Virus record (IMG/VR): IMGVR_UViG_3300030511_000001
Coordinates: 1 to 64,000 of that record
DNA length: 64,000 nt
Direction: 5' to 3' (one strand)
DNA from: a virus
Lineage: Duplodnaviria; Caudoviricetes
Shown: positions 3,242 through 43,505 of the stretch, in pieces
Position numbering within the stretch: the first letter of the stretch is position 1
Layout of the letters: each line of letters starts with the position of its first letter
Notes under the pieces: generated by a model
Told to the model about the DNA's origin: nothing
The model's input: the letters and a program-made list of their open reading frames with translations, nothing else
The model's database searches: none
Program-made: the position numbers and the translations under genes

Positions 3242-4014
3242 CCGGAAATCAGCGGTGGCGCGAGGGCCGCGCCAGCTACCGGCCTGCCGCCGAGACGATC
3301 GTCACCGCCGAGTACTCGGTCGAGGCGCTTCCGGAGCTCGACGCGAAGTCGTTCGTGGTCGAGCACCACTACTCGAGCTCCTACCCGGCGGCGCGCGGGC
3401 GGTTCGGCCTGTTCCACCGCTCGCACCTCGTCGGCGTCGCGGTGCTCTCGCACCCGTGCAGCGATCGCGTCCTGACGAACGTTTTCCCGGGCGTCCCGAC
3501 GCTCGAAGCCGTGGAGCTCGGCCGGTTCGTTCTGCTCGACCGCGTGCCGGGCAACGGCGAGACCTGGTTTCTCGCGCGCGTCTTCCACGCGCTGCGCCGC
3601 GAGGGCTTCGCTGGCGTCGTGTCGTTTTCCGATCCGGTCGCGCGCACCTCGGCCGCCGGCGATGTCGTGTTCCCCGGTCACATCGGGACCATCTACCAGG
3701 CACACAACGCCGCCTATCTCGGGCTCTCGACGCCGCGATCGCTGCGCCTCCTGCCGAACGGAAAGGTGCTTTCCGACCGCGCGATTCAGAAGGTCCGCGG
3801 CGGGGAGCGCGGGTGGGGCCGTGTCGTCGAGTTGCTGTGCGAACACGGCGCGCCGCCCTTTGGCGGTGATCGGCGCGAGTGGCTTCAGCGCGCGCTGCAG
3901 GTGACGACACGCGTCCTCCGCCACGGCGGGAATCACCGGTACGCTTGGGGACTCACGCCGAGCACGCGGCGGCAGCTCGAGGGCGGGCCGTACCCGAAGA
4001 AGGTGGCGGCGTGA
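3238..4014 (+). CDS. Mom-like (GNAT-fold) DNA modification protein
   Basis: FVVEHHYS, LVGVAV, VELGRFVL.D, GETWFLAR, VVSFSDP, GHIGTIYQA.N..YLG resemble Mu Mom homologs. Confidence 0.75.
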   Translation: MTGNQRWREGRASYRPAAETIVTAEYSVEALPELDAKSFVVEHHYSSSYPAARGRFGLFHRSHLVGVAVLSHPCSDRVLTNVFPGVPTLEAVELGRFVLLDRVPGNGETWFLARVFHALRREGFAGVVSFSDPVARTSAAGDVVFPGHIGTIYQAHNAAYLGLSTPRSLRLLPNGKVLSDRAIQKVRGGERGWGRVVELLCEHGAPPFGGDRREWLQRALQVTTRVLRHGGNHRYAWGLTPSTRRQLEGGPYPKKVAA

Positions 4015-5771: not shown

Positions 5772-6292
5772 CGACGACGTCGTGGCACGAGTTCAAAGGC
5801 TCCGGCCTGTTCTGCGATATGCGCGGCTGCGGCCAGGCCCACTCCGCCGCGGTGCATCAGAAACCAGCGCCGGCGCCGACCACCGAGACGGCGCGGCCGC
5901 ATCGGTACGTCGCGAACCCGGCGTGCTGCACGTTCCCTGTCGACGACGCGGTGCACATCGAAACGCGGTACGACCATGCGCCAGGCGCGCACACGATCGA
6001 CGAGGCGTATGAGGAGTTCCATCGGAACAACCCGCGCGTGTTCGACGAGCTCGTGAAGCTCGCGCGCGAGGCGCAGGCCGCCGGCGCGAAGCACTACGGC
6101 ATCGCCGCGCTGTTCGAAGTGCTCCGGTGGCACCGGCTGAAGAGTGGCGAGGTGATCCCCGACGACGACGGGTTCAAGCTGAACAACAACCTCCGCGCCG
6201 TGTACGCCCGCAAGATCATGGAAGCGCATCCGGAGCTCGCCGGCTTCTTCCGGACCCGAGCTCGAGCAGGCGAGGAGCCCGCCGATGGATAG
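5768..6292 (+). CDS. conserved phage hypothetical protein
   Basis: C-terminal FHRNNPRVF...LFEVLRW...FKLNNN...YARKIM...FFRTR recalled from phage hypotheticals. Confidence 0.75.
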   Translation: MTTTSWHEFKGSGLFCDMRGCGQAHSAAVHQKPAPAPTTETARPHRYVANPACCTFPVDDAVHIETRYDHAPGAHTIDEAYEEFHRNNPRVFDELVKLAREAQAAGAKHYGIAALFEVLRWHRLKSGEVIPDDDGFKLNNNLRAVYARKIMEAHPELAGFFRTRARAGEEPADG

Positions 6293-13121: not shown

Positions 13122-13209
13122 GCCGCGGTAGTCGAGTACGGCGCTCGAGCGGGCTGTAGACCCGTTTCGCTTCGGCGGCCATGCGGTTCGATTCCGTGAC
13201 GCGGCACCA
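13122..13209 (+). tRNA. tRNA-Tyr(GUA), class II, encoded CCA
   Basis: acceptor GCCGCGG/ACGCGGC, U8A9, D stem TCGAG/CTCGA, anticodon arm GCGGG-CT GTA GA-CCCGT, long UUCG variable arm, T-loop TTCGATT, A73-CCA. Confidence 0.88.
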
Positions 13210-25457: not shown

Positions 25458-25739
25458 ATGGAGGCGGTGCAGGTCTACGTCACCCCCGAGTTTTTTGATG
25501 GCACGTGTCCCTATCCGGTCGCGGCGCTGTGGATCGATGGTGCGCTGTTCGACACCTACCCGTGCGGCATCGTTCGCAAGCGCGTGAAGTGGCTGCCGCT
25601 GTGGCTCCCCTTCAACGCGCGCTACGACTTCTCCATTTACGCGCAACTCGCGTGCGTGAAGCGGCTGCGTGAGCTCGGCGAGGAACTGCGGACGCACATG
25701 CACGGCGCGATTCGTCGTGATGTAGAATGCCACGCATGA
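25458..25739 (+). CDS. hypothetical protein
   Basis: GAGGAG RBS, MEAVQVYV... Confidence 0.6.
   Translation: MEAVQVYVTPEFFDGTCPYPVAALWIDGALFDTYPCGIVRKRVKWLPLWLPFNARYDFSIYAQLACVKRLRELGEELRTHMHGAIRRDVECHA
25711..25728 (+). promoter_or_regulatory. repeated promoter motif copy (leaderless to ATG 25736)
   Basis: TTCGTCGTGATGTAGAAT. Confidence 0.7.
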
Positions 25740-27535
25740 AAAAGCTGGCGATCGGCGACCCTGAACAGAACGGCGCGACTCTCCCCCTGAAGATGCTCGA
25801 GCTCCGAAGCGTGACGCTCGGCAGCTCGGGATCCGGCAAGACGACCGGCGGCCGCGTGCTCGCCGAGGAGTGTTACGAGCAGGGCGTGCCGTTCGGCGTG
25901 ATCGACCTCAAAGGCGACTGGTGGGGATTGAAGTCGAGCGCGGACGGCAAGTCAGCCGGCATCCCGGTCGTCATCTTCGGCGGCGATCATGCGGACCTTC
26001 CGCTCGACGAGCGCGGCGGCGCGGCGCTCGCTGAAATCGTCGTCGACATCCGGCAGCCGTTCATCATCGACCTGGAGAATCTGTCGCGCGCAAAGCAGTG
26101 CACGTTCCTCGCTGACTTCTTCGACCGTCTCTACGACGTGAACCGCGAACCGCTCGTGCTGTTCTGCGATGAGGTGGACCGATACGCGCCGCAGAAGTCG
26201 ATGACGGCGGAGGCCATCAAATCGCTCTCGGCGACGGAAGACCTTGCGAAGCGCGGCCGCAAGCACGGGATCTTCCCGAAGTTCATCACGCAGCGAAACG
26301 CCTCGCTGAACAAGAACGTGGCCGAGCTGTGCGACGTGGCGATGGTCTACCGCACCTCCGGGCCGAACGATCAGGAGGCGGTGTCGAATTGGTTCAAGAC
26401 GAAGGCGACGAAGGACCAGCTCACGAGCGTGATGGCCGTCCTCGCCGGCCTCGAGACCGGCACCGCCGTCGTGTGCAGCGCGCATCCGTCCGTGCGCACG
26501 TTCGAAACGATCGCGTTCCGCGAGCCCCGCACCTTCGACTCCTCGGCCACGCCGGAGATCGGCCGCACGGTCATCAAACCGAAGGCGATGGCTTCGGCGG
26601 ACCTCGACGCGCTGCGCGAGCGCATGGCCGCGACGATCGAGCGGATGAAGGAGAACGATCCGAAGGAGCTGCAGCGCCGAGTGAAGGAGCTCGAGGCCGC
26701 GGCGAAAAAGGCCGGCGGCATGCCGACCGAACAGCAGCGCGCTCTCCTCGAGGAAGCCCGCGCCGCCCGCGTGGCGGCTGAGCGAGAAGTTGAGCAGCTA
26801 CGCGCCAGCATCCGCGACCTGCGCGCGCGACTGAAGAACATCCGCGCGCACGCGGTGGCAATCGAGGAGGCGTCCGCGCTGGACGGTGAGGAGCCGAAAG
26901 CGGCCGCGCCACGCACGTTCTTCCTGAACGAGCAGCATGAGAGCCGTGGTCGGAAGTCGGCGCCGGCGCCGATCGTCCACAAGATGCCCGCCGCGAAGGT
27001 CGTGAAGGCGGCACCGCCGGCGGCGGTCTCGTCGAACGGTTTCCAGCCGAACGGTTCTCAGCAGCGAGTACTCGACGCGATCGCGTGGTGGGCGTCGATC
27101 GGCGTGCCGGAGCCGAGCCGTGCGGCCGTGGGCTTCGTCGCCAAGATCAAGCCGACCGGCGGCCACTTCAGCAACACCGTTGGACCGCTGAACACGCACG
27201 GCCTGACCTTCGCGCCGCGCGACGGCTTCATCGCGCTCACGCCCGCCGGCGAGGGGCATGCGAATCATCCGGACACGCCGCCGACGCTGGCCGAGTACCA
27301 CGCCGCCATCCGGTCGATTCTGAAGACGGGCGCGTCGATCAAGATGTTCGATGCGATCGTCGAGCACGGGCCCGGCGAAATGACCGTGGCCGAGGTGGGC
27401 GAGGCCACCAACATCGACCCCACCGGCGGGCACTTCAGCAACTCCATCGGCCCGCTCGGCACCCTCGGGATCATCACCCGAGGCGCCGGCATGGTGCGCC
27501 CGACCGAGCTGCTGTTCCCGCCGCACCTTTCGTGA
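25736..27535 (+). CDS. HerA/FtsK-superfamily ATPase with coiled coil and tandem C-terminal wHTH repeats
   Basis: LGSSGSGKT, VIDLKGDW, LFCDEVDRY, KRGRKHG, ITQR; two PTGGHFSN..GPL repeats. Confidence 0.8.
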   Translation: MKKLAIGDPEQNGATLPLKMLELRSVTLGSSGSGKTTGGRVLAEECYEQGVPFGVIDLKGDWWGLKSSADGKSAGIPVVIFGGDHADLPLDERGGAALAEIVVDIRQPFIIDLENLSRAKQCTFLADFFDRLYDVNREPLVLFCDEVDRYAPQKSMTAEAIKSLSATEDLAKRGRKHGIFPKFITQRNASLNKNVAELCDVAMVYRTSGPNDQEAVSNWFKTKATKDQLTSVMAVLAGLETGTAVVCSAHPSVRTFETIAFREPRTFDSSATPEIGRTVIKPKAMASADLDALRERMAATIERMKENDPKELQRRVKELEAAAKKAGGMPTEQQRALLEEARAARVAAEREVEQLRASIRDLRARLKNIRAHAVAIEEASALDGEEPKAAAPRTFFLNEQHESRGRKSAPAPIVHKMPAAKVVKAAPPAAVSSNGFQPNGSQQRVLDAIAWWASIGVPEPSRAAVGFVAKIKPTGGHFSNTVGPLNTHGLTFAPRDGFIALTPAGEGHANHPDTPPTLAEYHAAIRSILKTGASIKMFDAIVEHGPGEMTVAEVGEATNIDPTGGHFSNSIGPLGTLGIITRGAGMVRPTELLFPPHLS

Positions 27536-28127: not shown

Positions 28128-28591
28128 GCCGATCGCCACGCCGCAAGGCGCTGAAGGCGCTGCGCCTCGAGCGAAAGCAGGTCCGCCGCGAGGGTGACGC
28201 ATACCGCGCGCAGCTCCTCCGCCAGATGAACGACTGGCTCGAGATGCACATGGCGGAGCTCCGCGAGGTGCGCGAGACGTTCGCGCCTCAATTGGAACGG
28301 CTCATCTCCGTTCGGATCGGCATGCCGCACAAGGTCGCGGTGCCGCACACCATCCCCAGGCATCGCGGGATCGACTCGGCGCCGGCAGTCGCGGAGGTGT
28401 TCAGCACGTATGACCTCGACACCCGCGAACTGCTGCGCCTCTGTATCGACATGCCGCGCGAGCTGATTCTCTACCTGTTCAACAAAGACGCTGAGTCCTG
28501 GCGCATCGCCGAACGCGAGCTGCAGCACGCCGCGACAAGGCTCGTGCGCGAACTGATGAAGATGGCCTTCACTGGGAGACTCGAGCAATGA
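28124..28591 (+). CDS. hypothetical protein
   Basis: GTGA overlap. Confidence 0.6.
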   Translation: MSRSPRRKALKALRLERKQVRREGDAYRAQLLRQMNDWLEMHMAELREVRETFAPQLERLISVRIGMPHKVAVPHTIPRHRGIDSAPAVAEVFSTYDLDTRELLRLCIDMPRELILYLFNKDAESWRIAERELQHAATRLVRELMKMAFTGRLEQ

Positions 28592-28752
28592 AACCCCTGC
28601 ACATCACAAAGATCGATCACGAGCACCGCGCCGATCCACGCATCCGCGGCATGTGCATCGGCTGCGAATGGCGAGGCCCGTGGCGCCGGTCGGCCGCCAA
28701 GGTCGACGAGGACCGGAAGCGCCACCACGACGAGATCACGGCGGCCACGTGA
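28588..28752 (+). CDS. small hypothetical protein (CxxCxWRG)
   Basis: 54 aa, below ORF-track cutoff; coupled overlaps. Confidence 0.55.
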   Translation: MKPLHITKIDHEHRADPRIRGMCIGCEWRGPWRRSAAKVDEDRKRHHDEITAAT

Positions 28753-29105
28753 TGAGCGATCCGACGACCGAACGCCGTTGCGACGACTGCTCGCAATGCG
28801 AGGGTGCGCGCATCCACCGCGACACCACGCTCCGGCACTTTCACCTCTTCTCGATTCCGCTGATGGAGCGGCCCGCGAGCGACTTTCCCGAGGGGTGGCC
28901 GCCGGGTTTTGAAGCGGTGATGTGTCCTCCTCGCCGGCACCTCGTGCAGACGGTCGTCGGCCAGCGCGCCGGCAAGCGCCGCGACGCCGAAGCCGCGCAG
29001 AAGGCGCACGAGCACGACATGGAGCTCATCAGGCGCCAGGCGTGGAAATGGGTGCAGGAGGAAGAGCAGCGAGAAGCCCAAGGCGACGCGCCGCTCGCGG
29101 ACTGA
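28752..29105 (+). CDS. hypothetical protein
   Basis: TGATG overlap, MSDPTTERRC... Confidence 0.6.
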   Translation: MSDPTTERRCDDCSQCEGARIHRDTTLRHFHLFSIPLMERPASDFPEGWPPGFEAVMCPPRRHLVQTVVGQRAGKRRDAEAAQKAHEHDMELIRRQAWKWVQEEEQREAQGDAPLAD

Positions 29106-29371
29106 TGGCGATCCGCACGCTGACCTTCGTGGCGATGAACAGCTTCGCCGTCTGGTGCGACACGTGCGCGGACGCGATCCCTTTCAGCGCGTTCGACGAC
29201 GTCGAGGTGATGAAGTCCGCGCTGCGCGTTCACGCGGCCGACGAGCACGGGCAAGACGTCGGCTTCTTCCGCGCGATCGCGCCAGGCGCAGACGCCGCCG
29301 AACTGCGCATCGAATTCGTCTGCGGTTCCCGTCGTCTGCGGCGGGCGTACCATAGGCGAAATGAACAGTGA
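29105..29371 (+). CDS. hypothetical protein
   Basis: TGATG overlap, CxxC...H. Confidence 0.6.
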   Translation: MAIRTLTFVAMNSFAVWCDTCADAIPFSAFDDVEVMKSALRVHAADEHGQDVGFFRAIAPGADAAELRIEFVCGSRRLRRAYHRRNEQ

Positions 29372-29627
29372 GGAATCGCGCCGCGCGGCCAACGCCGCGA
29401 TCGCTGCCGGTTCGGATGAGGAAGTCGACGCAGTCGTCGGCGGCGTCGTCCGGGGCGTGCGCGAGTTCGTCGCGCTCATTCGTTGCGGCCGCCGTGACTG
29501 CACGTACGCCGGCGAGCACATGATGCCGCTGCGCGATCGCATCCACGCAAGCGAGTGGATCGGGATGGCTGTGCTCCTGCATCCGACGACGCCGAACCTC
29601 CGCGTCGAGCTGCGCCGGTTGACGTAG
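29361..29627 (+). CDS. hypothetical protein
   Basis: 88 aa. Confidence 0.55.
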   Translation: MNSEESRRAANAAIAAGSDEEVDAVVGGVVRGVREFVALIRCGRRDCTYAGEHMMPLRDRIHASEWIGMAVLLHPTTPNLRVELRRLT

Positions 29628-29646
29628 ATTCGTCATTGCGTATAAT
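29619..29646 (+). promoter_or_regulatory. strong sigma70-type promoter
   Basis: TTGACG-16 nt-TATAAT, with TTCGTC motif variant. Confidence 0.8.
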
Positions 29647-29651
29647 GGCCC

Positions 29652-29736
29652 GCGCCGGCCCGGCTTCCCGCAAAGGTGGCGCGTTCCCGTTGCAAGACGC
29701 AGCGCGCAAAGCTGGCGCCGAACCCGAGGCCGGCGC
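29652..29736 (+). ncRNA. structured 5' leader of coiled-coil gene
   Basis: 9-bp closing stem GCGCCGGCC/GGCCGGCGC starting at predicted TSS; three GCAA-containing loops. Confidence 0.45.
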
Positions 29737-29754
29737 AAAATCGAAGGAGGAACG

Positions 29755-30303
29755 ATGGAACCGACGACCACCACCATCACCGAGGCGCTGGCCGAGGTGA
29801 AGCTGATCGGAAAGAAGATCGGCAAGAAACAGGAGTTCATCCTCACCTATCTGCTGCGCGGCGCGATGGTGAAAGACCCGCTCGAGAAGGACGGCGGTTC
29901 CGAGACGATCGTCGCTCGCGAGATGCAGGCGATTCGTGACCTCGAGGAGCGCGTCGTGAAGATTCGCACGGCGATCGCGCACGCGAACGCCACCGCGCAG
30001 CTCACGATCGGGACGACCACGCGCACCGTGTCGGAGTGGCTGACCTGGCGCCGCGACGTCGCGCCGATCGAGAAGAAGCTCCTCGGCGACATCGTGGCCC
30101 GCGTCAACGCCGCGCGTGAACAGGCGCGCCGCGCCACCGGGAAGCTCACGAGCGACGCCGCGGCGGCCGAACCGTCCGACATCCTCGTGAACCTCAGCGA
30201 AGTCGAGATCCAGACCCGCGTGGAGGCGATCGAGGAAGTGCTCGGCCGTCTCGACGGGTTGCTCTCCCTGCACAACGCTCGCACCACCATCACGCTCAAC
30301 TAG
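29755..30303 (+). CDS. DIP1984/DUF6847-like alpha-helical coiled-coil protein
   Basis: TITEALAE.K...KKI.KK...AI..AN....TI.....TVSEWL..R...LDGLLS..NA.T.I; GAAGGAGG RBS. Confidence 0.7.
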   Translation: MEPTTTTITEALAEVKLIGKKIGKKQEFILTYLLRGAMVKDPLEKDGGSETIVAREMQAIRDLEERVVKIRTAIAHANATAQLTIGTTTRTVSEWLTWRRDVAPIEKKLLGDIVARVNAAREQARRATGKLTSDAAAAEPSDILVNLSEVEIQTRVEAIEEVLGRLDGLLSLHNARTTITLN

Positions 30304-30311
30304 CTCAGGAT

Positions 30312-30589
30312 TGCCTTCGGCGGCGAAGTGAGAGAACGACAGCGGATCAAGGCGCCCTCGCCTTTCTCGGTCAGGGGGCACATGCTTGCGGAGCATGCGC
30401 AGCGGTTCAAACCCGCACGAGCTAACACGCTCAACGCTCAGAAGTTGAAAGGTACGAACGATGACAAGCTCAGTGCTCATGCTTCAAAGCTCGGTAAAAC
30501 CCGCCATTTGACTGGCCGCGGCGGAAACGTCGCGGAGGCGCCCACCGTTGCCGGCGCCTTCTCAGGTCGGCGGCTGCTGTTCGGAGGCA
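30312..30589 (+). ncRNA. candidate ~280-nt structured RNA (Y-RNA-like terminal stem, T-arm, heptamer repeats)
   Basis: 5' TGCCTTCGGCGGCG pairs with 3' TGCTGTTCGGAGGCA; GGCGAAG; GCGG-TTCAAAC-CCGC; A-rich NNGCTCA-like repeats; GAAA-capped hairpin. Confidence 0.6.
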
Positions 30590-30593
30590 TGTT

Positions 30594-31466
30594 TTGAGCG
30601 GGCGCGTCCTCGAGATGCGCACAAACGCGGAGGGCGGCGTCCGGATCATTGAGGATGCGAGCGTCGGCCCGCCGGATGTGGAGGATGTCGTACGCCGGTA
30701 CGGCATCCGCCCGACATCCATGGCGGTCTACTACGACGGCTCGGGCATCGCCAAAACAGAGCTGCACTTCGATCCGCCGGCGAGGCCGTTCACGCCCACG
30801 ATCCCCGGACGCTTTCAACCGCCGATCGGCCCGTCTCTCGCCGAGGCGATGGAGAACTTCGGCTCCGGAGTGCTCAACGGGTTGCGCACGCAGCTCCGCA
30901 ACGAACGGATGATCCGCAAGGCGTACGAGATGGGCGCGACCGTGCGATCGAACGCGAAGCCCGAGCAGTGGACGTGCGGCCGCTGCGTGCTCGACTGGCC
31001 CGACGAGTCGCCGGTCTGTCTGATGTGCGGCAACACCGCGGTTGCGCGGCATGTCCCGCCGCAGTCGATCCGTATCCCCGCGCTTCCGCCAATGGGTGAG
31101 ACGCGCGCCGTGCGCGTCGCGATCGACGGGAAAGTCGTGGGCGAGGTGCCGGTCGGCTCCTTTCTGGTGCTGAACGAAGGACCGACGCACGAACTGTCCG
31201 GCGTCACGATCGGCCACGGGTACGAGCTCGAGGCCGAGGAAGTCGCGCCGGCGCCGGTCTACGGCTTCGGCGTCTCGCCGGACGGTCTCACCGTGGATCC
31301 CGCACCGTTCGGAGCGTTGCCCGCGCCGCTGGCGAAGGCGAAGCCCGAGACGTGGGCCGAGAGTTACGAGACCATGTTCCGCATGCTCGGCAACGCTCGC
31401 GCCCTCGAGGCCATGGGCGTGCCGGAACCTTCACGCCCGTACCGACACACCTTCCGAGTGAGGTAG
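30594..31466 (+). CDS. hypothetical protein with internal Zn ribbon
   Basis: WTCGRC...CLMCG. Confidence 0.65.
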   Translation: MSGRVLEMRTNAEGGVRIIEDASVGPPDVEDVVRRYGIRPTSMAVYYDGSGIAKTELHFDPPARPFTPTIPGRFQPPIGPSLAEAMENFGSGVLNGLRTQLRNERMIRKAYEMGATVRSNAKPEQWTCGRCVLDWPDESPVCLMCGNTAVARHVPPQSIRIPALPPMGETRAVRVAIDGKVVGEVPVGSFLVLNEGPTHELSGVTIGHGYELEAEEVAPAPVYGFGVSPDGLTVDPAPFGALPAPLAKAKPETWAESYETMFRMLGNARALEAMGVPEPSRPYRHTFRVR

Positions 31467-31469
31467 CGC

Positions 31470-31820
31470 ATGCCGCTCGTCCGCGAGTTCGTCGTCACCC
31501 GCGACGCCGACAACCGAGTCACCGAATTGCTCGTGCGCTTCTACGGTGGCGGCGAAATCACCATTCCCACCACCGGCACGGCCGTCACCATGGGCCGGCT
31601 GTTCGCGAAGCCGCGCACGCTCGTCGACGTCGTGGCCTCGTTCCCGGCGGACGCACCGGACATCTCCGACGTCACGCTCACGGCGCTCTGCAGGTTTTGC
31701 CACCGGCCCGTGACCATCGGCGCGGACGTCACGAGCGTCGTCAATTCGCCGGTGTACTGCGCGCGGCCCGACTGCAAAGAGCTCGGGGAAGAGCTGGCGC
31801 GGCAGGCGGTCGCGGGGTGA
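31470..31820 (+). CDS. hypothetical protein with Cys motifs
   Basis: GAGG RBS; CRFC...CARPDC. Confidence 0.65.
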   Translation: MPLVREFVVTRDADNRVTELLVRFYGGGEITIPTTGTAVTMGRLFAKPRTLVDVVASFPADAPDISDVTLTALCRFCHRPVTIGADVTSVVNSPVYCARPDCKELGEELARQAVAG

Positions 31821-40679: not shown

Positions 40680-40895
40680 ATGCCGAAGCTGAGCATTTCC
40701 GATCCGACCGTCCGCGCAGTGCTCGTGAAGGCGCTGAAGATCGGCGTCAAGACGTTCGTCCCCGGCGGGGGCGCCATCGTCGCCGGCGCTGAGGCGTTGT
40801 GGGAGGCGTACCGCGACGCGCTGATGAACGAGTTCAGCGTGCCCGTCGAGGAGCGCGCCGCGCTGCTCGAGTGGATCGCCACCGACGACGAGTAG
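40680..40895 (+). CDS. small hypothetical protein
   Basis: GGAGG RBS. Confidence 0.6.
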   Translation: MPKLSISDPTVRAVLVKALKIGVKTFVPGGGAIVAGAEALWEAYRDALMNEFSVPVEERAALLEWIATDDE

Positions 40896-40982
40896 ACCGC
40901 CATCACCGTCCACCACTGACCGGGGCGGCCTCGCCTGATGCGCTGGCCGCCGCCGGATCCCGACTTCTACAGGAGGTTTTTC

Positions 40983-41687
40983 ATGAGCGAAACAGCCACG
41001 ATCCTACCGGGCGAGCAGCGCCCGATGGTGTGGATGTACATGCCGCCGGACGGGACGCCGATGCCGTGTCTGGCCGACAAAGTCGCCTACGCGCGCGGCC
41101 TCGGATACGAGGAATGCAACCCGCCCGACGCGGAGCGTAAGCCCGTCAGCGACGTCATCCCCGAGGAGACCGCCGCCGACCACGAGGAGCGCGTCGCGCG
41201 CGAGCTCGAGGAGCGGCAGGCCGCCGTGGCCGAGCAGCTTGCGGCGATCGGCGTGGTGCGGCCGCCGAACATCGGCTGCGCCGACTGCGGCGGTTCTGGA
41301 CTTTGCCCGAAAGGCGCCGTTGCGCCGTGCTGGACGTGTTATCCCGAGGCCCGCGAGGCCGCTGAAGCCGCGGCGAAGGGCCCCAACCTCGAGGACGACT
41401 CGCCCACGCTCGGCGGCAGCGACAACGGCGACGTGATCGACGGCCTGCCGGCCGACACGACCACGATCACCGTCACCGGGACCGGATTCGAGCCCACGAA
41501 CACCGTGAAGCTCGACACGACGACTCCGCGGAGCTGCAATATGGCCGGCTGCAAGGGCCTCTGCGGAATCTGCCCGCCACCGAAGAAGGTCACGGTGCGC
41601 GCGGGGCGTGAGCTGAACAAGAATCGCCGCGCCCTCGGCCTCGACCCTCTCAAGATCGTCGACGGCGTCGTGAAAGGCGGTGCGTGA
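40983..41687 (+). CDS. hypothetical protein with two Cys clusters
   Basis: AGGAGG RBS; CADC.GSG.C...CWTC; C..AGC.G.CGIC. Confidence 0.65.
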   Translation: MSETATILPGEQRPMVWMYMPPDGTPMPCLADKVAYARGLGYEECNPPDAERKPVSDVIPEETAADHEERVARELEERQAAVAEQLAAIGVVRPPNIGCADCGGSGLCPKGAVAPCWTCYPEAREAAEAAAKGPNLEDDSPTLGGSDNGDVIDGLPADTTTITVTGTGFEPTNTVKLDTTTPRSCNMAGCKGLCGICPPPKKVTVRAGRELNKNRRALGLDPLKIVDGVVKGGA

Positions 41688-43014: not shown

Positions 43015-43497
43015 ATGGCGCTCACCAGCGAGCAGATCGACGTCATTCGACGGCAGTACATCCGCGACCTTTGGAAGCCGGCGGTGCCCAACGTCTCGCC
43101 GGCGGAAGGGCTGTCGCACTTCAACCTCGCGAACAAGCGGGCGTTCATCAGCGACGAAGGGCTGCATGCGAAGGCGGACCAAGTCAGCCGCGCGTTTCGC
43201 GATGAGCTCTCCGGCGTGTACGAGGACGAGTACTCCCGCCTGACGCGCGGCGGCGTTTCCGAGTCGGTGGCCGAGACCGACGCGACCGCGCTGCAAAACG
43301 ACGCCTTCTATCGGCTCATCCGAGCTGCCGTGTACGAGGACATGATGCTCGATGCCGGCTACGTCGGCTCCATCGCCGACAACGACCAGCGCACCGCCCT
43401 GTTCAAGACGTGGGAGAAACAGATCATCCGCGATCGCCAGTTCACGCGCCAGCGCACGACGCCGGCGCTGCGATCGCTGCCGCTCGAGCGGTTCTGA
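43015..43497 (+). CDS. probable head-tail adaptor/neck protein
   Basis: helical 160 aa preceding neck genes (position-based). Confidence 0.5.
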   Translation: MALTSEQIDVIRRQYIRDLWKPAVPNVSPAEGLSHFNLANKRAFISDEGLHAKADQVSRAFRDELSGVYEDEYSRLTRGGVSESVAETDATALQNDAFYRLIRAAVYEDMMLDAGYVGSIADNDQRTALFKTWEKQIIRDRQFTRQRTTPALRSLPLERF

Positions 43498-43505
43498 GGT
43501 GCGCC

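Follow-up and report, generated by a model that had tools for sequence, protein, structure and literature searches.

A predicted helical-bundle phage protein and its putative partner RNA

We examined a 64,000-nucleotide stretch (the window) of a soil phage (Duplodnaviria; Caudoviricetes), corresponding to positions 1 to 64,000 of the 81.6-kb IMG/VR virus record IMGVR_UViG_3300030511_000001. On the plus strand, a sigma-70-type promoter (TTGACG, 16-nt spacer, TATAAT) lies at 29619–29646; it matches 11 of 12 consensus positions, against 0.1 such sites expected in shuffles of the 2-kb region, and is the likely start of the unit, with its function inferred. A Shine-Dalgarno-like AAGGAGG at 29744–29750 precedes by 4 nt the ATG of an ORF encoding 182 aa (29755–30303). 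Eight bases after the stop codon, within an ORF-poor segment (30304–30593) whose G+C content of about 0.57–0.63 falls below the 0.68 of its surroundings, begins an element at 30312–30589 that we identify as a non-coding RNA, bounded here by the first and last paired bases of its closing stem. The module sits among phage DNA replication and nucleotide-metabolism genes. A preliminary description of the locus, made from the sequence alone, had noted the promoter, the gene and the downstream segment with its paired ends and internal hairpins, and this observation is confirmed by our analysis, except for an upstream leader discussed below.

The 182-aa protein is predicted to be a four-helix bundle (AlphaFold2 pLDDT 96.6) and has 212 homologues. 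Its best solved match is the DIP1984 structure 3KDQ (Foldseek probability 1.00, TM 0.66 by target; VIA-align Z 10.8 over 152 of 152 residues), which alone stands above the helical-bundle background, with the next unrelated row at 8.1. As Z values below about 13 are not decisive for helical bundles, this indicates likeness at the superfamily level. The protein itself has no PF20935 (DUF6847) or NCBIfam hit at E up to 0.1, although 17 of 95 relatives hit PF20935 (best E 2e-4), and it matches phrog_1491 clearly (E 1.3e-17); Siphovirus Gp157 is a lead only. We therefore regard it as a distant member of the DIP1984/DUF6847/phrog_1491 superfamily. A profile search of the family against PDB sequences returned nothing significant, and literature searches for DIP1984, septicolysin, DUF6847 and Gp157 found no functional study. 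Conserved residues include K16, K20, K21, K24, K25, R35, R71, W95, W98, R99, R100 and R121; however, the median pI of the family is 6.8, so that it is not an overtly basic RNA binder. A structure prediction with controls supports self-association, with a score of 0.56 against a best control of 0.25, contact agreement of at least 92% and partner pLDDT of at least 84; that mark was reached by 20 of 30 proteins solved as pairs and by 1 of 23 solved as single chains. The prediction used four copies and a custom alignment, and because a DIP1984 crystal structure exists, the pass may partly reflect memory of it.

To ask whether the downstream segment is a structured RNA, we compared it across related loci, as thermodynamic stability was uninformative: folded alone, 30304–30593 is no more stable than expected (z −0.70 on the plus strand and +0.07 on the minus strand). 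On 45 sequences, the 54 pairs of the consensus are paired in 90.1% of cells, against 40–44% when the partners are slid, and 48 of 54 show compensatory change. The covariation score of 0.607 compares with 0.12–0.14 for slid partners, and 0 of 500 shuffles reach the observed value. On an independent 20-sequence alignment, 30 of 36 RNAalifold pairs are compensatory. Scanning 28500–31500 against Rfam 15 at E up to 10 found nothing in the element, including no Y-RNA, tmRNA, GOLLD or ROOL match, and nine related loci at E up to 1 gave only tRNA hits inside it. The family thus appears uncatalogued, although a survey of more than 10,000 viral RNA candidates of 29–151 nt (PMC10690425) may contain fragments of it. 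Searches of cultured phages with the window's unit by blastn and tblastn gave no match, and the close family is known only from metagenomes and MAGs.

The RNA comprises five parts. The closing stem P1 pairs 30312–30325 with 30575–30589 (13 pairs, 90% of cells paired, 10 pairs with changes on both sides), and conserved G-U pairs fix the strand. A nearly invariant GCGAAG (30323–30328) follows, in which GCG closes P1 and AAG forms a 3-nt linker to a pseudoknot between UGAGAG (30329–30334) and UUCUCA (30559–30564), with changes on both sides in 6 of 6 pairs and 89% of cells paired. A K-turn reading of GCGAAG was dropped, as the bases after the linker form Watson-Crick pairs rather than tandem G-A pairs. 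A variable insert at 30346–30418 comes next, followed at 30419–30500 by an A-rich array of about ten 7-nt units (family consensus AAAG-Y-U-N), predicted to be mostly unpaired. In this array, a spacing of 7 nt dominates with 85 cases, autocorrelation peaks at lags 7, 14 and 21, and the length is 80–85 nt in 34 of 45 elements. The 3′ domain contains two helices, CCGCC (30501–30505) with GGCGG (30569–30573; 99% of cells paired, 4 of 5 pairs compensatory) and GACT (30510–30513) with GGTC (30565–30568; 94%, 4 of 4), and two hairpins. One is an 8-bp hairpin (30516–30535) with compensatory change in 8 of 8 pairs and a GNRA tetraloop, GAAA here and GAGA or GAAA across the family; the other (GCGCC/GGCGC, 30538–30557) is compensatory in 5 of 5 pairs, with 84% of cells paired.

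In the window, the variable insert is a degenerate tRNA-like domain consisting of a D-arm-like stretch, a CATGCT/AGCATG hairpin and a T-arm-like element at 30402–30416, and neither ARAGORN nor Rfam calls a tRNA there. The T-arm-like element nevertheless aligns with the T arm of complete tRNAs embedded at the same place in relatives. At this place, ARAGORN calls a tRNA in 19 of 59 relatives, the Rfam tRNA model scores 42–70 bits in 9 of 9 loci tested, and the T-loop motif is present in 34 of 59, with 1.3 expected. Anticodons vary freely and include Ser, Leu and Tyr types without a long extra arm. DNA-type contigs of close relatives from three sequencing runs, which held no information on transcripts, showed a swap of exactly 30346–30411.

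The RNA is closely tied to the protein gene. Profile nhmmer searches found it on the gene's strand in 51 of 52 viral loci, the exception being cut off 229 nt after the gene, and in 14 of 14 MAG loci that have downstream sequence, from several phyla. A search from the RNA side gave 15 true hits, all with the gene alongside, including 5 of 5 new loci; three further hits (loci L065, L066 and L070) match only 33 nt and are chance matches, that in L065, the one inspected, lying inside a coding frame. No other gene family is shared by more than 7 loci, host G+C ranges from 34% to 68%, and the hosts span at least seven phyla. The module, often found beside tRNA genes, travels as an accessory cassette in changing neighbourhoods.

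These comparisons bear on two readings in which the segment would not act as RNA. The 89-aa ORF 30328–30597 is open in the window, but long open frames are expected by chance at 68% G+C, 37 of 45 homologous elements have at least 2 stops in all three frames, and there is no Pfam, PHROG or NCBIfam match; conservation follows base pairs and a 7-nt period, not codons. A coding role is thus refuted by comparison. Conservation of this ORF as protein, or absence of the downstream element from homologues, had been set beforehand as grounds for rejecting the proposal, and neither was found. The short repeats, A-richness and location within the replication module might alternatively suggest a DNA-level element, such as a replication origin with 7-bp iterons and an A-rich unwinding region. 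This is very unlikely: long-range compensatory pairing keeps conserved G-U pairs, which would be A-C mismatches on the other strand, the orientation relative to the gene is fixed in every locus that carries the element (71 places), and the GNRA loop and same-strand embedded tRNAs likewise indicate an RNA of the plus strand. No reverse transcriptase (PF00078) was found in the virus record, and retron-like or template readings were dropped.

The preliminary description had also described an 85-nt structured leader upstream of the gene, hinted at a relation to bacterial Y RNAs, and proposed oligomerization of the protein on the RNA to form a ribonucleoprotein involved in RNA repair, decay or counter-defence; this interpretation is only partly supported. 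The downstream RNA, its constant companionship with the DIP1984/DUF6847-like gene and, by prediction, the self-association of the protein are borne out. By contrast, the leader (29654–29754) folds no better than shuffled sequence (z −0.82) and has no counterpart in 52 related loci, so that the picture of two structured RNAs is not supported. Nor is the Y-RNA link. GGCGAAG at 30322–30328 satisfies the motif GNCGAAN0-1G in the window, but its first G is A in most relatives (consensus RGCGAAG) and only GCGAAG is conserved. A search with PF05731 (TROVE/Ro60) gave no match in the virus record or in 20 related phage genomes, 14 of these 21 genomes being at least 90% complete, whereas control genomes did match; RtcB is present in 1 of 21, far from the module. 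The phage YrlA RNAs described in PMC4201824 lie within 4 kb of a phage Ro60 gene. A Y RNA of the YrlA type working with a host-encoded Ro60 (Rsr) would fit the end-formed closing stem, the tRNA-like domain and GGCGAAG near the 5′ end, but given these data, the lack of a Y-RNA match and an obligate partner gene for a different protein, we consider it very unlikely. Any role in RNA repair, decay or counter-defence is conjectural, and the neighbouring genes point instead to the DNA replication and nucleotide-metabolism module.

Taken together, the locus holds a self-contained two-part phage module. The comparisons establish a new, pseudoknotted RNA family with a closing stem, a GCGAAG-plus-pseudoknot core, a swappable tRNA or tRNA-like insert, a length-conserved row of about ten A-rich heptads and two hairpins, one with a GNRA loop, inherited strictly together with the protein gene and with nothing else. 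What we infer from sequence and prediction alone is that the two are made from one transcript and assemble into a ribonucleoprotein. Self-associating protein units would bind the RNA, most plausibly at the single-stranded heptad row, through the conserved basic face of helix 1 and the WxxWRR segment, and the tRNA-like arm would be exposed as a handle or mimic for tRNA-recognising factors. We hold this explanation with moderate confidence, as transcription, accumulation and binding of the RNA are likewise inferred, and as strict linkage is also expected for a cis-regulatory element or for two parts of one pathway that never touch. In addition, the two need not share a transcript: in some loci, the RNA is 75–380 nt from the gene, once (locus L052) upstream of it, and once (locus L017) a terminator-like hairpin lies between them.

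A cis-acting 3′ element that stays attached to the mRNA and controls the upstream gene, through stability, termination or autoregulation by its own protein, would account for the RNA beginning 0–20 nt after the stop codon in most loci, always on the gene's strand, and for the enrichment of T after the closing stem (0.37 against 0.22). However, about 280 nt with a pseudoknot, a GNRA hairpin, a tRNA domain and a length-conserved heptad row is far more than known 3′ stabilisers or terminators need, the element occurs at a distance with genes or tRNAs in between, and no terminator-like site was found in the window; we consider this reading unlikely. Equally unlikely is an independent trans-acting decoy or sponge, in which the heptad row and tRNA-like arm would titrate a host factor, such as a tRNA-directed nuclease, an RNase or an RNA chaperone, and the protein would work in the same pathway without binding the RNA. 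Repeated short single-stranded units are typical of sponge RNAs, and the varying anticodons and cassette-like mobility would fit, but 100% linkage to one protein family across very distant hosts is most simply explained by direct partnership, and no host target is identified.

The pairing may extend to the wider superfamily. In our sample, Bacillota DUF6847 genes also carry a conserved uncatalogued downstream element with a compensated long-range helix; RNAalifold on nine such regions gave a poor consensus, and only this helix, proposed by eye, was then assessed. In phage T5, gene T5.085 (phrog_1491, E 9e-84) is followed by an unannotated 363-nt gap at 43142–43504 with the same layout, whereas T5 'RNAX' shares only a T-arm-like stretch with the family. 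The RNA of the window shows no nhmmer match to the Bacillota elements and only a weak match (E 0.0012) to the heptad row of the T5 element. It is possible, though somewhat less likely than not, that the DIP1984/DUF6847 superfamily is the protein half of a widespread and undescribed class of ribonucleoprotein particles in phages, bacteria and possibly archaea, each branch having its own cognate RNA of about 200–350 nt directly behind the gene. In the branch seen here, self-associating units would bind the measured heptad row while the tRNA-shaped arm engages tRNA-recognising machinery during phage replication, for example as bait for, or shield against, tRNA-directed host nucleases. If the pair is a particle, it adds a new machine to the short list of universal-style RNPs (SRP, RNase P, tmRNA-SmpB, Ro-Y RNA) and gives a first functional handle on a large family (DIP1984, DUF6847, phrog_1491) that has had a crystal structure since 2009 but no known role. 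The fold is unusually rich for the RNA's size, and the related version in T5 places the question within reach of a standard laboratory system.

Several known systems offer partial parallels. Like YrlA RNAs (PMC4201824), which are also found in phages and encoded next to their protein partner, the RNA is modular, with ends that form a long stem, a purine-rich CGAA-containing motif near the 5′ end and an internal domain that mimics tRNA; its partner gene, however, encodes a DIP1984-like predicted four-helix bundle rather than the Ro60 ring, it is 2–3 times longer, with a pseudoknot, a heptad row and two extra hairpins, and its tRNA part is a complete side branch including an anticodon arm. In smpB-ssrA, a small protein gene is likewise followed on the same strand by a pseudoknotted RNA of about 300 nt with a tRNA-like domain, and the pair works as one particle. 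Here, the tRNA part is internal and in normal order rather than formed by the RNA's ends, there is no tag reading frame (the periodicity is 7 nt, not 3), ARAGORN finds no tmRNA in the window, and the protein is helical, not an SmpB barrel. Type III toxin-antitoxin systems (ToxIN-like) have tandem repeats of about 30–45 nt upstream of an endoribonuclease toxin gene, whereas the present repeats are 7 nt, downstream of the gene and inside a folded scaffold, and the protein has no PADLOC hit. GOLLD and ROOL are also elaborate phage-borne RNAs of unknown function found near tRNA genes, and can carry tRNAs inside variable regions, but are 500–800 nt long, are reported to assemble as RNA-only complexes and are not known to have an obligate protein gene. 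Finally, rows of short protein-binding units occur in HutP and TRAP targets and in CsrB-type sponges. These involve different proteins and units, and the present row, for which binding is inferred, is embedded in a large folded scaffold; the resemblance lies in evenly spaced short purine units in a single-stranded stretch, as in HutP sites, which are NAG triplets spaced 7 nt apart and read by a ring of identical subunits.

The region lies in an 81.6-kb IMG/VR virus record of about 68% G+C, derived from a soil metagenome. A near-consensus sigma-70-type promoter sits at 29619-29646, with 11 of 12 consensus matches against 0.1 such sites expected, and is followed by a Shine-Dalgarno-like AAGGAGG and the 182-aa ORF 29755-30303. 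From 30304 to 30593 the G+C content falls to about 0.57-0.63, and the next long frame starts at 30594. In the window itself, the upstream neighbour is a 602-aa HerA/FtsK-like ATPase (25727-27535, + strand), which is also a weak PHROG 'terminase large subunit' hit and whose C-terminal half holds two copies of a repeat containing GGHFSN-(T/S)-(V/I)-GPL. In related loci, the neighbours that could be annotated are a family A DNA polymerase, a Gp2.5-like single-strand-binding protein, helicases and thymidylate synthase. tRNA genes are often nearby. In the 64-kb window, tRNA-Tyr (GTA) at 13122-13209 (+) is the only tRNA gene that ARAGORN finds. One related phage with a complete 76.8-kb genome (locus L018) encodes a permuted tmRNA about 2 kb downstream of the module (5983-6232, + strand; Rfam RF04321, 94 bits against a gathering score of 47).

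To determine whether the segment behind the gene is more than a chance feature, we first folded it alone, which was uninformative (z = -0.70); comparison, however, is decisive. The protein has 212 homologues, all unnamed, through which we retrieved 52 viral loci. A single-sequence nhmmer search with the 290-nt segment from the window already hit the same-strand region behind the homologous gene in 26 loci at E below 0.01, and a profile search then found the element in 51 of 52, the exception being cut off 229 nt after the gene. These phages range in G+C from 34% to 68%, and most show an ORF-free gap of at least 300 nt at this position. In an independent collection of MAGs (Planctomycetota, Bacteroidota, Chloroflexota, Alphaproteobacteria, Armatimonadota, Acidobacteriota and others), 14 of 14 loci with downstream sequence carry the element. 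We also searched from the RNA side with a 22-nt degenerate pattern; of 18 hits, 15 are true elements, all with the gene beside them, whereas the other three match over only 33 nt, and in L065, the one of these inspected, the match lies inside a coding frame. No other gene family is shared by more than 7 loci, and the conserved unit is therefore exactly gene plus RNA. The spacing of the two parts varies: in locus L021 the 189 nt between gene and RNA (732-920) look like two further tRNA-like sequences; in L017 a strong hairpin followed by TTTT (3577-3668), resembling a terminator, separates gene and RNA, hinting at separate transcription in some phages; and L052 is the only locus where the RNA (2661-2937) lies upstream of the gene, ending 64 nt before its start on the same strand.

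RNAalifold on 20 sequences predicted 36 pairs, 30 of them with compensatory changes. On 45 sequences, we tested 54 pairs in 9 helices and found 90.1% of cells paired, compared with 40-44% when partners were slid by 1-3 columns, and a covariation score of 0.607 compared with 0.12-0.14; 48 pairs have changes on both sides, and none of 500 shuffles reaches the observed values. In window coordinates, the helices comprise the closing stem P1 (30312-30325 with 30575-30589), a pseudoknot proposed by eye (30329-30334 with 30559-30564) in which all six pairs covary, two helices formed by 30501-30505 with 30569-30573 and by 30510-30513 with 30565-30568, a GNRA-capped 8-bp hairpin (30516-30535) and a second hairpin (30538-30557). 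The 3' strand 30559-30589 is thus paired almost without a break to four different upstream segments. Conserved G-U pairs, the GNRA loop and the embedded tRNAs described below show that the + strand transcript is what folds, and a DNA site is unlikely. Nor is a reading frame conserved: 37 of 45 elements have at least two stops in all three frames, and ORF 30328-30597 is an artefact of high G+C.

Between the core and a heptad row described below lies an insert of changing length. ARAGORN calls a tRNA there in 19 of 59 elements, always at the same place and on the same strand, and the Rfam tRNA model scores 42-70 bits in nine of nine loci tested. The anticodons differ (Ile, Arg, Val, Glu, Gln, Thr, Lys, Asn) and include Ser, Leu and Tyr types that lack the long extra arm, and two have abnormal loops. 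The anticodon therefore seems not to be under selection, and the arm is better called a tRNA-shaped module. A T-loop motif is present in 34 of 59 elements, with 1.3 expected. The copy in the window is degenerate, retaining the T-arm-like 30402-30416 and a hairpin with a 5-nt loop at the position of the anticodon arm. Contigs of close relatives from other soil and wastewater samples keep both flanks but replace exactly 30346-30411 with unrelated letters, in one case with 67 other letters; the insert site turns over even between close strains.

The insert is followed by 80-85 nt (34 of 45 elements fall in that length range) that are A-rich and periodic. Successive AAG-type anchors are 7 nt apart in 85 cases and 14-15 nt apart in most others, and sequence autocorrelation peaks at lags of 7, 14 and 21. 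The unit is roughly AAAG-Y-U-N. As only one weak helix was predicted here (helix 5 of those tested), this heptad row is probably mostly single-stranded.

AlphaFold2 modelling of the protein with 95 relatives (pLDDT 96.6) predicts four long helices with a small sheet at one end. The only solved structure that stands out is 3KDQ, the DIP1984 protein of Corynebacterium diphtheriae, with a Foldseek probability of 1.00 and a VIA-align Z of 10.8 over all 152 residues, the next row scoring 8.1. The protein of the window reaches no Pfam, NCBIfam or PADLOC threshold but hits phrog_1491 at 1.3e-17; 17 of 95 relatives touch PF20935, and the protein atlas points to DUF6847 and Siphovirus Gp157 clusters as leads. 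The DIP1984/DUF6847 assignment in the preliminary description was therefore right at superfamily level. Invariant or nearly invariant residues include a basic stripe on helix 1 (K16, K20, K21, K24, K25), followed by R35, R71, W95, W98, R99, R100 and R121, although the overall pI is neutral. A four-copy structure prediction passes its controls with a score of 0.56, compared with 0.25 for the best control, a mark reached by 20 of 30 proteins solved as pairs and by 1 of 23 solved as single chains. The runs agree in at least 92% of contacts, and the pLDDT of the partner is at least 84. However, the job differs from the calibration in using four copies and our own alignment, and a DIP1984 crystal exists, such that the pass may partly reflect memory.

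Among 301 sampled genomes of one phylum, taken around a Clostridium MAG, 15 carry DUF6847 genes. In these Bacillota genomes (loci L088-L104), the 250-330 nt just downstream of each DUF6847 gene are ORF-poor and hold a conserved, uncatalogued non-coding element with shared blocks GGUAGC and GGCGAG, a T-arm-like hairpin in some, and a G-rich 3' GUGAGGGUGGG block; no Rfam match lies on these downstream stretches. A second sequence type occurs in L094 and L097-L100. A long-range helix that we proposed there keeps pairing through changes on both sides in 6 of 6 pairs, with 87% of cells in that helix paired against 19-51% for the tested pairs when the partners are slid, although this rests on nine sequences only.

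We also examined phage T5 (AY543070; locus L108). Its gene T5.085 is a phrog_1491 member (E 9e-84) and a distant relative of the family of the window (hhalign E 4.8e-5, probability 68%). Directly behind it lies an unannotated 363-nt gap (T5 43142-43504; L108 2643-3005, - strand) that, by eye, holds an end-pairing stem, an ACGAAAG motif, a row of 7-nt A-rich units and a CCUAG/CUAGG helix; it looks like a T5 version of the same gene-plus-RNA layout. The family profile hits the row weakly (E 0.0012). T5 'RNAX' (T5 40848-41566; L108 349-1067, - strand), annotated as a stable RNA of unknown function next to tRNA-Arg, contains a T-arm-like GGTTCGAATCC followed by AAAAGCU but otherwise does not resemble the family.

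Taken together, the comparative analysis establishes a new structured RNA family and its obligate linkage to a gene for a protein of predicted DIP1984 fold, whereas co-transcription of the two, direct binding of the protein to the RNA and the role of the heptad row are inferences. The observation in the preliminary description of a structured RNA behind a DIP1984/DUF6847-like gene thus holds. Its interpretation is supported only in part, as neither the proposed structured leader RNA nor the suggested connection to Y RNAs, Ro60 and RtcB finds support.

Bacterial Y RNAs of the YrlA type are described as carrying GNCGAAN0-1G near the 5' end and a tRNA-like domain, and as being encoded within 4 kb of Ro60, including in phages that carry Ro60 (PMC4201824). 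In the present family, the first G of this motif is A in most relatives. No TROVE gene exists in the 21 phage genomes searched, 14 of them at least 90% complete; RtcB is found in one 241-kb phage, far from the module; and no Rfam model other than tRNA matches the element. Although membership of the Y-RNA family is thus not supported, the RNA works architecturally like a Y RNA, combining an end stem with a tRNA mimic.
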